From: a phage
Length of the DNA stretch: 64,000 nucleotides
Reading direction: 5' to 3' (one strand)
NCBI GenBank assembly: GCA_031520405.1
Contig: GCA_031520405.1_4842.1
How positions within the stretch are numbered: position 1 is the stretch's first letter; every line of letters begins with the position of its first letter. A program made the translations under genes and the position numbers. Shown one piece after another: positions 20,217 to 24,161 of the stretch. The notes beneath the pieces were generated by a model. That model was not told the origin of the DNA. It worked only from the letters and a program-made list of their open reading frames with translations, and ran no database searches.

Positions 20217-21716
20217 ATGTCTGAGATCCAAATAGTCAAAGTGAACGAAGTTAGAATGCGGATCCTTGCCGAGGATTATATCCGTGAAGAACTCAACGAT
20301 TACTTCAAATTTGAAGATCCTAATTTCCAACCGAATCCGTTCAGTAAATGGGACGGCGTAGTGCGGTTGTTCACAAAGAGTTCTGGGCTTATCGACATCG
20401 GCCTGTTATTTGAGGTGTTCAAATTCTGTAAGATGAACGGTTACACCATCAAATTAGATCCGGCCTTAAAATATATTCAAGATATTCCGGATGAAGAAAT
20501 TCATGCGTTCATCGATACATTGAATGCGGTGTACCGAGACGAAAACAAACAATATCAAAAAGCGATTGTCCGCGATTATCAATTTGATTCTGTTGCCACA
20601 GCAATACGCCAAAGCAGATGTGTCCTCGAAGCTGCCACGAGTGCTGGCAAATCCTTTATTTTGTACATCATGGCGCGTTACTACAGGCAACGCAGAGATG
20701 CCCTCGAAAGTAATCTGAGGACGTTAATCGTTGTACCATCCATTCATTTGGTGACTCAGTTGTATGACAACTTCGAAGAATATAGCCACGGGACAGAATG
20801 GAAACCATTGATGAATGTCCAGACAATATACGAAGGGGCAACGAAAGAGATTTTCAAACCCATAGTTATTTCAACTTGGCAAGGTATCCAGAACCAACCC
20901 AAAGAGTGGTTCCATCAATTTGGAGATATCGTCGTCGACGAAGTACATACATCAAAATCAGATAAATTGTCTTACATCTTGAATAACTGTATTAACGCTG
21001 ATCAACGTTTGGGAGTAACCGGAACCCTGGCGAATACAAAGGTCGCAGGGTTACAAGTCGTTGCTCACTTTGGCGCATATCATAAAATTATTACAGCGCG
21101 CGATTTAATCGATCTAGGATATGCGGCAGACATCAATGTTAATATGATTGAAGTCATACATCCTATGGCAGACTGTATTGAAATGCACGGTGCTGAGTAT
21201 CAAAAGGAAATAGAATTCCTCATTGCTAACGAACGCCGCAATGAATTGATAGCTCGAATGGCTCTATCTTTGAAAGGGAACGTCGCAGTAATGTTCGAAC
21301 GTATCGATGCACACATGATGTTGGTTTATGAAATGCTATCGACAGTCAAGAAAAACGTATTCGTCATCAACGGGGAAGTCAAGACAGAAGTTCGTAAACA
21401 GATTCAGGCTGCTATGGAAGAAGGTGAAGATATAACACTGTTGGCTTCATACGGTACTATGCAACAGGGCGTATCTATCAAAAAACTCCATCATCTGATA
21501 TTGGCCCATCCCAGCAAATCTTATATCCGTGTTATACAGACATTGGGGCGTTTGATGCGTCAGCATTCCTCTAAGGATGTTGCGCGAATCTGGGACCTGG
21601 TAGACAACCTGCGTTACAACGGTTCCTACAACCATGCTCTCAGGCATTCTCATGAGAGATATAAATTTTATCTTATGGAGCGCCACCCTGTTAAAATGAA
21701 AAAAGTGGCGCTCTAA
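20217..21716 (+). CDS. uvsW: UvsW-like SF2 DNA helicase
   Basis: ATSAGKSFILYIMARYY and TWQGIQNQPKEWFHQFG...DEVH closely match T4 UvsW; similar length. Confidence 0.85.
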   Translation: MSEIQIVKVNEVRMRILAEDYIREELNDYFKFEDPNFQPNPFSKWDGVVRLFTKSSGLIDIGLLFEVFKFCKMNGYTIKLDPALKYIQDIPDEEIHAFIDTLNAVYRDENKQYQKAIVRDYQFDSVATAIRQSRCVLEAATSAGKSFILYIMARYYRQRRDALESNLRTLIVVPSIHLVTQLYDNFEEYSHGTEWKPLMNVQTIYEGATKEIFKPIVISTWQGIQNQPKEWFHQFGDIVVDEVHTSKSDKLSYILNNCINADQRLGVTGTLANTKVAGLQVVAHFGAYHKIITARDLIDLGYAADINVNMIEVIHPMADCIEMHGAEYQKEIEFLIANERRNELIARMALSLKGNVAVMFERIDAHMMLVYEMLSTVKKNVFVINGEVKTEVRKQIQAAMEEGEDITLLASYGTMQQGVSIKKLHHLILAHPSKSYIRVIQTLGRLMRQHSSKDVARIWDLVDNLRYNGSYNHALRHSHERYKFYLMERHPVKMKKVAL

Positions 21717-21721
21717 CTATT

Positions 21722-22087
21722 TCAAAGATCTTGGTTCACATAGGCGGGGGTTGCCTCGCCTTCTTTGTTGGAACCAAATAAACAGTCGATCGTGCCAATA
21801 CATTGTTGTAGCACTTTCGGCTCAAGAATCTGAGAAAACAATTCTTCATTAGATGCCAGCAATGGAACAACTTTCACTTCCCGCGCCTGGCCTTGTTGAA
21901 TAATGCCAACATACAGACCTTTGTTATTTGGGAGTAATGGTATCACCATCATCGGTGTCACAACAAACCCCGATGTACAGAAAAGGCTTTGTAAATAAAC
22001 GCCTTTTAATGACGAACGTTGTTCTGATATGGAAAGAATTGCTTCTTGGTCTTCCCCTACTGCGTATAAACCAACAAATTGCTTCAT
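21722..22087 (-). CDS. hypothetical protein (reverse strand)
   Basis: 121-aa reverse ORF with no competing forward ORF; convergent with uvsW. Confidence 0.45.
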   Translation of the reverse strand: MKQFVGLYAVGEDQEAILSISEQRSSLKGVYLQSLFCTSGFVVTPMMVIPLLPNNKGLYVGIIQQGQAREVKVVPLLASNEELFSQILEPKVLQQCIGTIDCLFGSNKEGEATPAYVNQDL

Positions 22088-22425
22088 ATGTATTTCTCGC
22101 GTGTTAGCAAACTTGGCTACATAATAATGTCATGCTCTGTTTAGACCAAATAAAATATTTTAATTGTTGAATAAAAATCGCTTTCTTGTTGAACAATCCG
22201 TGCGTAATATACGAGTTGTGAGCTTTGCGAGCAACGAGTATTATCACGAGCGAAGCGAGTAGACTGATAAAGAAAGGTTTTATTAAAACAGAATATTATA
22301 AATGCCGTCAGGCATTTATTTATCGCGCGTAGGGCAATTTATCACTTGTTCTATAACTACAAACACGCGATACTAATTTGCGTCAAATATGACTTGAACC
22401 CCACTATATTTTGAGGATACAACTA

Positions 22426-23094
22426 ATGCAAGAGATCACTCTCTCCGAACGCACTTTACAACTGCTGGCTAACTTTGAAACCATCTGCCCCTCTATCGTT
22501 CTGGCACCTGGTAAAAAGTTGCGCACTGTTAACGATTCCAGTACAGTTATCGCTATTGCCGACATTGACGAAGACTTCCCGTTCGAATTCCCGATTCTGG
22601 ATCTGACCAAATTGCTGGCAATCCAGCGTCTGCCGAGTTTTAAAGGCGGTAAAATTGAAATGTCGGAAGACCACATTTTGCTGAAAGGTGAAAACTCCCA
22701 ACTGCAATTCTGGCGTTCCGCTAAAGAACTGACTGTCGTTCCAGCAGACAGCATCGATCTTCCGTCTGTAGAATTTGAAGCAACAGTCACTCCTGAAAAA
22801 ATGAAAGAGCTGACTCGCGCCTGTTCTACTCTGGGCCACAAAACTGTACGCCTGGTGGCCAGCGGCGGTAAAACTCGTCTGGTGGGCACGACCACTACTA
22901 TCGACAATTCCAACGATTACACTGTTGAGTTGGGTGAAACAACTCTGGGTGATTTTGCTATGCCTGTTGATGTGGTCAACCTGAAAATGATCGAAGGCAA
23001 CTATGTGATCCGCGCCTGTGCCGAAATGCAACTGGTTAACTTCCAATCCGCAGATGGCACCATCAACTATTACGTCGGCATGCAGCTGGATTAA
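22426..23094 (+). CDS. sliding clamp (gp45-like)
   Basis: length, position before clamp loader, and loose similarity to T4 gp45; ATG 22426 (track start is alternative codon). Confidence 0.8.
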   Translation: MQEITLSERTLQLLANFETICPSIVLAPGKKLRTVNDSSTVIAIADIDEDFPFEFPILDLTKLLAIQRLPSFKGGKIEMSEDHILLKGENSQLQFWRSAKELTVVPADSIDLPSVEFEATVTPEKMKELTRACSTLGHKTVRLVASGGKTRLVGTTTTIDNSNDYTVELGETTLGDFAMPVDVVNLKMIEGNYVIRACAEMQLVNFQSADGTINYYVGMQLD

Positions 23095-23123
23095 TCAATA
23101 ACGATTCGGCGCTTTATTATCGG

Positions 23124-23146
23124 TGGCGGGGTTTCCCCGCCCTTTG
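23124..23146 (+). terminator. hairpin terminator-like element
   Basis: GGCGGGG-TTTC-CCCGCC hairpin with weak T-run. Confidence 0.45.
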
Positions 23147-23171
23147 AAACGTTTTATCTAAAGAGGCTGCA

Positions 23172-24161
23172 ATGTCTAACATCACTATCGTCACAGATCA
23201 ATACGCGTGGGAAAACAAATATCGCCCTGACAATCTGGATGAGATCGTCCTCCCTTCAGACGTCCGTGCAAAAATCCATGGCTATGTTACATCAGGCAAT
23301 GGAAACATCCCCTCAATGCTGTTCTATTCCCCTCAGCCTGGTACGGGCAAGACTACTTCTGCTCTGGCTGTTTGCAACGAAATCGGTTGTATCAAACCGT
23401 TGATGATCAATGCGTCACTGGATAACAGCATTGATGTCATCCGTGACCGTGTTATTCAATACGCAACTGGCGTCAGTGTTTTCGGTGGCCGCAAAGTCGT
23501 TATCCTCGATGAAGTTGAGCGACTTTCCATGGCGGCGCAGGAATCCCTGAAAGGCATCGTAGAGAAAGTCTCAAAAAACTGCTCCTTCATCCTGACGACT
23601 AATGCGAAACAGCGCGTTAACGAACCTCTGCGTTCCCGCTGTCGTGAAATTGATTTTATCTGGTCTGAAAAGGAAGCAGATGAAGTTAAACTTCAATTCA
23701 TGCGTCGTTGCGCAACTATCCTGACAGAGGAAGGCATTCCGTATGAAGCTGGTGTAATTGCTTCCATTGTGAAATCATATTTCCCAGATAATCGCAAAAT
23801 TATGGGAACTCTTCAGGATAATGCCACCACGTTTGGTAAAATCGATGAACGCGCTCTGGCACAGGTTAAAGCAGGGGAATTCCAAGCGTTGGTGGATTTC
23901 CTAAAAACCAATGATTGGGCTGGGATGAAGCAGTGGGTGACCGACAACCAAAACTACATCACTGAAGATTTTTATTCCCGTTTCTTCCATTTCTGCGTTC
24001 CCCAGAACAAGGAAAAGACTCCTTTGATTCAAAACGAGTCAATCCCTGATCTGGTATGCGTCTGTGGTCAGTCTCAGATTGAACATCGTTCCGTCGGCGA
24101 CGTCTGGTTACACGGCGTTTACTTCTTGACTAACGTCATGCTCAACATCAAATGGAAGTAA
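23172..24161 (+). CDS. clamp loader large subunit (gp44-like AAA+ ATPase)
   Basis: Walker A PQPGTGKTT, Walker B ILDEVE, SRC-like RSRC motif. Confidence 0.85.
   Translation: MSNITIVTDQYAWENKYRPDNLDEIVLPSDVRAKIHGYVTSGNGNIPSMLFYSPQPGTGKTTSALAVCNEIGCIKPLMINASLDNSIDVIRDRVIQYATGVSVFGGRKVVILDEVERLSMAAQESLKGIVEKVSKNCSFILTTNAKQRVNEPLRSRCREIDFIWSEKEADEVKLQFMRRCATILTEEGIPYEAGVIASIVKSYFPDNRKIMGTLQDNATTFGKIDERALAQVKAGEFQALVDFLKTNDWAGMKQWVTDNQNYITEDFYSRFFHFCVPQNKEKTPLIQNESIPDLVCVCGQSQIEHRSVGDVWLHGVYFLTNVMLNIKWK

Follow-up and report, generated by a model that had tools for sequence, protein, structure and literature searches.

A covarying element in three copies per genome, upstream of the sliding-clamp gene and two baseplate genes of Ackermannviridae phages: a candidate family of structured small RNAs

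What does a phage of the family Ackermannviridae keep in the 338 bp that separate its sliding-clamp gene from the divergent gene beside it? The DNA analysed here, called the window below, is a stretch of 64,000 nucleotides (contig GCA_031520405.1_4842.1). It comes from a Kuttervirus (Ackermannviridae), a Salmonella/E. coli phage: positions 21500-23200 share 99.3-99.7% identity with many genomes of that genus, relatives of SFP10, Det7 and CBA120. A 121-aa open reading frame (ORF) on the - strand starts at 22087 (CAT 22085-22087), and the sliding-clamp (gp45-like) gene has its ATG at 22426; thus, the gap covers 22088-22425. An earlier note on this sequence had singled it out as the longest gap in a very compact genome and had proposed divergent promoters, a replication origin or a small RNA in it. 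ORF boundaries and tiling confirmed its length and, within the window, its rank (323 bp by crude ORF tiling, versus 250 bp for the runner-up), and the next-largest apparent gaps of the window hold plausible ATG starts. Genome-wide, a longer gap of 518 bp exists in SFP10, and it houses a sister of the element described below. The interpretation given in the note is partly supported. From the sequence we conclude that the central module of the gap is, on balance, probably a member of a three-copy family of structured small RNAs and a separate non-coding transcription unit.

The core of this module, which we call copy 1, is a pair of hairpins on the + strand. H1 (22209-22241) reads AUAC-GA-GUUGU-GA-GC-UUU-GC-GA-GCAAC-GA-GUAU. 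Its stem comprises 11 Watson-Crick or wobble pairs and is interrupted by two symmetric 2x2 loops of tandem G·A, with CGAG opposite CGAG; 8 of 10 lineages have H1 in their minimum-energy fold. H2 (22246-22260) reads AC-GA-GC-GAA-GC-GA-GU; its GAs likewise face GAs, and its core is conserved in all three copies. CGAG/CGAG is the classic stable context of sheared tandem G·A pairs in nearest-neighbour studies and, as in that motif, both tandem-GA loops are flanked by C-G and G-C pairs. A kink-turn was rejected, because the loops are symmetric (2x2) and no copy has a 3-nt bulge. The apex of H2 varies (GAA, GUA, UUCA, AAC or a 7-bp stem). RNA of the + strand folds at -26.0 kcal/mol, versus -19.1 for the - strand. 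On the - strand, the G·A and U·G pairs would read C·T and A·C; they are thus available only on the + strand, which makes the structure of H1 and H2 strand-specific. The imperfect inverted repeats that had been reported here, GCGAGCAACGAG (22227-22238) and CACGAGCGAAGCGAG (22245-22259), are present, but they make more sense as the 3' arm of H1 and as H2.

Substitutions among the genera preserve this pairing. In Limestonevirus and Agtrevirus, an apical C-G is replaced with U-A and a U·G with U-A, and a C-G of H2 is replaced with U-A; in Miltonvirus, the base of H1 has changed from AUAC/GUAU to AUUC/GAAU and the central stem is longer by three pairs. In the compensatory-substitution test for H1 and H2 of copy 1, 98.9% of cells were paired and three pairs had changed on both sides; the covariation score was reached by none of 500 shuffles, and slid controls were 15-47% paired. 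Over all such tests, which also cover H1 of copies 1 and 2 and the extra module described below, 97-100% of cells were paired with three to five both-side changes, and the slid controls reached 15-62%.

A covariance model (R1) was built from H1 and H2 of copy 1 and run on the rest of the SFP10 genome. It found copy 2 (36.5 bits, E = 3.5e-7) in a 301-bp divergent gap upstream of the baseplate gene gp6, oriented as copy 1 (SFP10 locus L138, 26100-26313, - strand), and BLAST from copy 2 found copy 3 in the 518-bp gap upstream of the baseplate gene gp5 (SFP10 locus L137, 47810-47990, + strand). Both sisters lie outside the window and are conserved across genera. The three copies are spaced about 43 kb apart, and each points toward its downstream gene. 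The divergent neighbours of copies 1 and 2 were considered as possible paralogues and rejected, as they have no similarity. The shared plan begins with an A-tract and a TTTTCTA box, 16-18 bp and TAnnnT, followed by H1 in copies 1 and 2 only; a hairpin-pseudoknot-hairpin module comes next in copies 2 and 3 only, and then H2, with an invariant YGAGC...GCGAR base, in all three. It ends with an AT-rich tail, a terminal GC hairpin with a U-rich run, and the downstream gene's own promoter, which for gp6 and gp5 is of the late type (CTAAATA or CATAAATA). In about 158 kb, the string ACGAGC...GCGAGT has just three occurrences, one per module.

The sister copies carry covariation of their own. Across copies 1 and 2 (11 sequences), 100% of the H1 cells were paired and four pairs had changed on both sides, and in the extra module of copies 2 and 3 the values were 96.9% and five pairs. 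One of these five belongs to the pseudoknot: in both copies of the module, Taipeivirus has C-G in place of A-U. Copy 2 folds at -50 kcal/mol (z = -3.4). In Miltonvirus, copy 2 was too divergent for model R2 and was parsed by eye and by folding; it has an entirely different 7-bp central stem and retains both tandem-GA loops and the H1 architecture. In IMG/VR, the exact H1 pattern was found almost only in Ackermannviridae contigs of 150-160 kb, the exception being one 6-kb metagenome contig, and in genomes with two H1 matches both were on the same strand; a loose scan for the pattern gave mostly chance matches. In distant members of the family from Vibrio, the locus between UvsW and the clamp gene holds H2-like hairpins (UGAGC-GCA-GCGAA and GAUUGC-GAA-GCAAUC) after an AT tract.

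The gap as a whole is strongly conserved. Matches to it were found in 273 phage records, 272 of which cover at least 80% of the query, and its identity to Limestonevirus, Agtrevirus and Taipeivirus is 73-80%. In comparison with Dickeya phage LIMEstone1, the gap (78.9%) is as similar as the clamp gene (78.0%), whose third-codon positions are only 55.6% identical; judged from these values, the gap is under selection of roughly the strength that acts on a core protein of replication. The 121-aa gene (57.5%) evolves much faster than the gap that it adjoins (57% versus 79% identity to LIMEstone1). The conservation comes in blocks. Invariant columns make up 73-74% in H1 and H2, 71% in the clamp leader, 69% in the clamp promoter, 63% in the box upstream of the hairpins, 48% in a tract resembling an UP element and 4% in the AT-rich tail. 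No conserved reading frame was found in the gap, where ORFs of 20-47 codons vary in presence and frame between genera, and the small coding sequences annotated there in two GenBank records are not conserved in relatives. Near-identical Kuttervirus sequence also stands under unrelated host labels in OR844942 and OR844944 (Enterococcus phage Efm 3-10) and in MN871475 (Pseudomonas phage Pa-sanjiao), labels that likely reflect contamination or mislabelling.

Copy 1 begins with a rightward promoter-like element of a phage-specific class (22172-22210, + strand), which consists of an A-tract, a TTTCT box (22182-22186), 18 bp and TAATAT (22205-22210). The architecture AAAAA..CTTTTCTA, 16-17 bp and TAnnnT heads both sister copies, and in the orthologues of copies 2 and 3 the spacer between box and TAnnnT varies in sequence at a constant length. 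Elsewhere, TTTTCTA-N16/17-TAnnnT stands ahead of rIIA and of an ordinary ORF that has a ribosome-binding site; the sites of this class are L138 32704-32734 and 49871-49900, L137 47820-47849 and window 22182-22210. Because the class precedes ordinary genes and its spacer varies at a fixed length, we take it, on sequence grounds, as a genuine non-late promoter type. At L138 32762 (SFP10 about 140,761), an ATG with a promoter and a ribosome-binding site occurs some 150 nt before the annotated start of SFP_0173, which is probably placed too late. The late-promoter motif of the phage appears to be CTAAATA or YATAAATA. CTAAATA precedes the start codons of the UvsW gene and of many structural genes by 30-45 nt (window 746, 4996, 9777, 10995, 20184, 50912, 55102 and others); the searched loci gave 23 matches, four of them double-counted in the overlap of the window and L138, plus five of TATAAATA, and CTAAATA would be the core of the late promoters in this group of phages.

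Downstream of H2, copy 1 continues into a variable AT-rich tail (22261-22297, + strand; GC about 0.27-0.30 over 22261-22320). In phages ZQ1 and A221 (L008, L009), the equivalent of 22263-22297 has indels and 22-nt or 44-nt tandem duplications. The tail is followed by hairpin D (22298-22319), ATAAATGCC-GTCA-GGCATTTAT and then TTATTTAT, which is terminator-like and possibly bidirectional. The hairpin AAATGCC-GTCA-GGCATTT of the earlier note is real and extends to these 9 bp (-10.8 kcal/mol, z = -3.9, matched by none of 200 shuffles). Hairpin D is conserved in Kuttervirus, Agtrevirus and Limestonevirus, with the loop GTCA or GAA; Taipeivirus and Miltonvirus have AT palindromes instead. It has only three G-C pairs and the tail UUAUUUAU, and a scanner flags a terminator on the - strand only. 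The module closes with the GC-rich block E, CGCGCGTAGGGC, then AATTTAT (22324-22335, + strand), whose fold is weak here (-1.7 kcal/mol); its relative CGCGCGAG with a U-rich run closes copy 2 and the Miltonvirus and Taipeivirus copies.

Other elements that had been noticed in the gap carry less weight. The AT-rich tract is there (GC 0.22-0.23 at 22120-22199), and so is a TATAAATG box (22297-22304), but the significance of the latter is unconvincing, as it belongs to the arm of a hairpin and neither Taipeivirus nor Miltonvirus has it. As a late promoter it was rejected: it is neither CTAAATA nor YATAAATA, and it lies 122 nt from the ATG, versus about 30-45 nt for a TATAAATA-like box. As for direct repeats, the exact CTTGTTGAA occurs only once (22185-22193) and TTGTTGAA twice (22164-22171 and 22186-22193), the latter pair inside a 22-nt tandem unit (22152-22173 and 22174-22195, 73% identical). 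An 8-mer pair in 338 bp is about the chance level, the first TTGTTGAA copy is degenerate in Taipeivirus, and the direct repeats seem not convincing. Two long-range pairings from a repeat finder (22172-22187 with 22270-22285, and 22321-22330 with 22363-22372) are absent in other genera and are probably chance matches of AT-rich sequence.

Taken as a family of structured RNAs, the element would make the gap a compound regulatory region. A leftward promoter would serve the 121-aa gene, and a promoter at the right edge with a 50-nt leader would serve the clamp operon; between them, at about 22172-22335 on the + strand, the module's own TTTTCTA-class promoter would direct transcription through H1, H2 and the AT-rich tail up to the terminator-like hairpin, with a structured RNA of about 100-130 nt as the product. 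Each paralogue would be set apart from its downstream gene by the terminal hairpin and that gene's own promoter. The pseudoknot, the tandem-GA loops, the freely varying apices and the strand specificity are typical of RNA. Like small RNA genes of phages and bacteria, the module is a compact intergenic unit, non-coding, with a promoter-like element, covarying hairpins, an AU-rich stretch and a terminal hairpin with a U-rich run; unlike them, it has no Rfam match or conserved seed, it has tandem-GA loops and, in the sisters, a pseudoknot, and there are three paralogues per genome. The covariance-model search of Rfam that the earlier note had called for (4227 families, permissive E-value, all three copies) gave chance matches only, at 8-22 bits against thresholds of 34-67. 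The small RNA proposed in that note is strengthened well beyond its original basis by two covarying hairpins, a promoter-type box, a terminator-like hairpin and two paralogues; the transcription of the module, its RNA ends, its protein binding and its function are what we infer from these features. The general kind to which the element would belong is known; the family itself is, as far as we found, undescribed.

As for what such an RNA would do, tandem G·A loops are frequent protein- or metal-binding platforms. We conjecture that the invariant YGAGC...GCGAR internal loops form a protein-binding platform and that the RNA acts as a scaffold or decoy and not by base-pairing. No conserved single-stranded seed segment was found in the module in the compared sequences; for this reason, a base-pairing small RNA is disfavoured and a protein-binding or scaffold role appears preferable.

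Several points weigh against an RNA family. In copy 1, the -10-like TAnTAT (22205-22210 in the window) abuts H1 in all five genera, so that a normal start would fall inside the 5' arm of H1; the base of the H1 stem is nonetheless conserved and covarying in this copy. In copy 2, 11-17 nt lie between the -10 and H1. For copy 1, an upstream start, an action of H1 on the non-template DNA strand, or retention of the stem base for another reason are possibilities. At -8 to -11 kcal/mol, the terminal hairpins have only modest stability, and interruptions break up the U-tracts that follow them. The covariation comes from about five lineages and three paralogues, with few independent events, and the paralogues may exchange sequence by gene conversion. 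Structure in single-stranded DNA would fit the same sequence evidence. In the searchable literature, we found no transcriptome or 5'/3' end data for Ackermannviridae, and the literature on this family gave no small RNAs, origins or description of the element.

A bolder version of the RNA reading is that the three members, built of tandem-GA hairpins with or without a pseudoknot, form an unrecognised family with a dedicated role in infection, either as primer or R-loop RNAs that define the replication origins of the phage family or as decoys that time the switch from replication to assembly; we regard this as a tentative possibility. In the decoy version, the RNAs would titrate a host or phage RNA-binding protein. 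The copies precede the clamp gene and two baseplate genes, and the clamp of T4 couples replication to late transcription.

Another explanation, which we consider unlikely, is a replication origin of the type of T4 ori(uvsY) and ori(34) or of T7, in which the non-coding transcript of a non-late promoter remains hybridised to the adjacent AT-rich DNA and primes the leading strand. The hairpins of the + strand would then form in the primer RNA or in the displaced strand, and three copies would mean three origins. As at those origins, a non-late promoter with no coding function adjoins AT-rich DNA, a UvsW homologue is encoded nearby, and there are several copies, here about 43 kb apart; furthermore, ori(34) of T4 is a non-coding promoter inside a late-gene region. 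In the Vibrio members of the family (L014-L016), the gap between UvsW and the clamp gene has two or three tandem TATAAT promoters, an AT tract of 65-100 bp and GNA-capped hairpins, a layout that is more origin-like than that of the enterobacterial genera: a strong TATAAT promoter fires into the pure AT tract, which ends in a GCGAAGC hairpin, and VAP7 carries GATC/AGATCA repeats at the locus. However, the cumulative GC skew has no inflection at 22 kb, the purine content is ordinary (0.54-0.59, versus 0.525 +/- 0.05) and the GCGAAGC loop is not conserved, so the origin suggested in the earlier note found no support. What the module conserves is a folded single strand, namely GC-containing hairpins and the pseudoknot, and not the AT tract of T4 and T7 origins; its AT-rich tail is the least conserved part and lies after 55 nt of structured, GC-richer sequence downstream of the promoter. 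Neither a pseudoknot nor tandem-GA loops are known features of T4 or T7 origins. The geometry of the MotA box, which sits about 12 bp upstream of TAnnnT, is not found either; the string TGCTTTC was rejected as such a box, as it occurs in some genera only and lies 21 bp from the -10-like hexamer. The idea that the 121-aa gene is a UvsY homologue, which would make the gap equivalent to ori(uvsY), was also rejected, as that gene has no Pfam match and belongs to a PHROG with no known function.

About as doubtful is a cis-acting leader of the clamp operon, in which transcription from the upstream promoter would continue through H1 and H2, and these would act on RNA polymerase or recruit a factor and so, by attenuation or by antitermination of the put/nut kind, decide how far hairpin D is read through toward the genes for the clamp, the clamp loader and RegA. 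At HK022 put and lambda nut, hairpins of the leader RNA make RNA polymerase resist terminators, and the module resembles these leaders in having two hairpins directly after a promoter and ahead of a terminator-like hairpin; promoter, hairpins, terminator-like hairpin and gene follow each other on one strand, and the orientation of all three copies toward the downstream gene agrees with such a role. The module has no sequence or Rfam similarity to put or nut. Moreover, every downstream gene has its own conserved promoter past the terminal hairpin, and a non-late promoter with antitermination makes little sense before two baseplate genes that are late. For these reasons, a leader of the put/nut kind is unlikely.

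It is considerably less probable that H1 and H2 are only operators in double-stranded DNA, bound by a repressor or activator of the divergent promoters. They do lie between these promoters, H1 shares sequence with a -10-like hexamer on each strand (+ TAATAT, - TATATT), and the 22-bp tandem repeat with TTGTTGAA adjoins them. A true DNA palindrome is excluded, however, because the GA dinucleotides lie on the same strand in both arms (CGAG...CGAG), which is the signature of single-strand G·A pairing, and the substitutions are compensatory for pairing. Miltonvirus alters the length and sequence of the stem, keeps the pairing and destroys the spacing that a promoter reading of the - strand would need, and the sister copies have a covarying pseudoknot.

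Mini-hairpins of the GCGNAGC type are found in the complementary-strand origin of phage G4, in ssiA of RSF1010 and in the early promoters of N4 (PMC13037366; PMC12633501). As in such DNA, used by the N4 virion RNA polymerase and in G4/RSF1010 priming (PMC13037366), H2 of the window contains exactly GCGAAGC, with further flanking pairs; H1 of Miltonvirus is capped by GCGGAGC or GCGAAGC, and the Vibrio relatives carry GATTGCGAAGCAATC at the locus. The Vibrio loci and a review had suggested this very stable motif as the key feature. It was dropped, and a signal in single-stranded DNA that is built on it, be it a hairpin promoter like those of N4, a primase site or a site of single-strand initiation, is very improbable: orthologues and paralogues exchange the loop freely (UUCA, AAC, UUU, GUUA or long apical stems), and the window has no excess of GCGNAGC, with 16 occurrences against 16.4 expected.

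Beside the putative RNA gene, the gap holds predicted promoters for both neighbouring genes, and here the divergent promoters of the earlier note are supported by conserved hexamers at a constant 17 bp with variable spacer sequence. The predicted leftward promoter is of the sigma70 type (22121-22149, - strand), with TATTAT as the -10 (reverse complement of 22121-22126) and TTGGTC as the -35 (reverse complement of 22144-22149); the hexamers are conserved in four genera, and the spacer drifts in sequence and stays 17 bp long. Between the predicted -10 and the start codon lies a putative 5' untranslated leader of the 121-aa gene (22088-22113, - strand), and just upstream of the -35 is an AT-rich tract that resembles an UP element (22150-22171, GC 0.22) and is the first unit of the 22-nt repeat with TTGTTGAA. 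The clamp promoter (22346-22374, + strand) would consist of TTGTTC (22346-22351), 17 bp and GATACT (22369-22374). Its hexamers are invariant in 10 phages of four genera, with a spacer that varies in sequence and is always 17 bp, and the TGTTCTA of its -35 region is similar to the TTTTCTA box. Of the six consensus positions, each of the two -35 hexamers matches only three, which is why a consensus scanner missed the leftward promoter; the sigma70 matches of the scanner, ATGTCA-18-TAAAAT and TTGTGA-17-TATTAT, were rejected, since the -35 or the -10 is not conserved.

Upstream of the gap, a UvsW-type helicase gene (UvsW_N domain) is convergent with the 121-aa gene, and a GC-rich terminator-like hairpin (21742-21761) lies between the two. 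As the helicase gene ends in this hairpin, the clamp operon, in which the clamp gene is followed by clamp-loader genes and a RegA homologue, needs a promoter in the gap. The predicted 5' leader of the clamp mRNA (22376-22425, + strand) is conserved; it has a stem, GUCA-loop-UGAC (22382-22393), that is kept across relatives while its loop changes in sequence and length, and a Shine-Dalgarno sequence, GAGGA (22413-22417). A link between this leader and the RegA homologue encoded downstream is inferred. In Taipeivirus (L005, L006), the leader has a 20-codon upstream ORF whose TAA overlaps the clamp ATG, and in Kuttervirus a 22-codon ORF starting with TTG runs over the same conserved nucleotides in a different frame; judged from this comparison, the conservation of the leader lies in the nucleotides and not in a peptide. 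The 121-aa ORF itself (21722-22087, - strand) is labelled 'clamp loader subunit' in several GenBank records, which looks like annotation drift. A scan of the gaps for tRNA and tmRNA found none. In LIMEstone1, the UvsW gene, which adjoins the conserved gap, is split by the HNH homing endonuclease I-LimI (L003 1-864).

Kutterviruses, Agtreviruses, Limestoneviruses and Taipeiviruses belong to the phages proposed most frequently for biocontrol and therapy against Salmonella, Escherichia coli O157, Dickeya and Klebsiella, and their non-coding DNA is essentially unannotated. For this phage group, the present study gives a working promoter consensus, TTTTCTA-N16/17-TAnnnT for non-late and CTAAATA for late promoters. 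The strongly conserved, covarying element in three copies offers a target in the search for a new regulatory RNA, or for the origins of replication, of the phage family. It is also a candidate new family for RNA databases and a guide to safe and unsafe sites for the engineering of these genomes.

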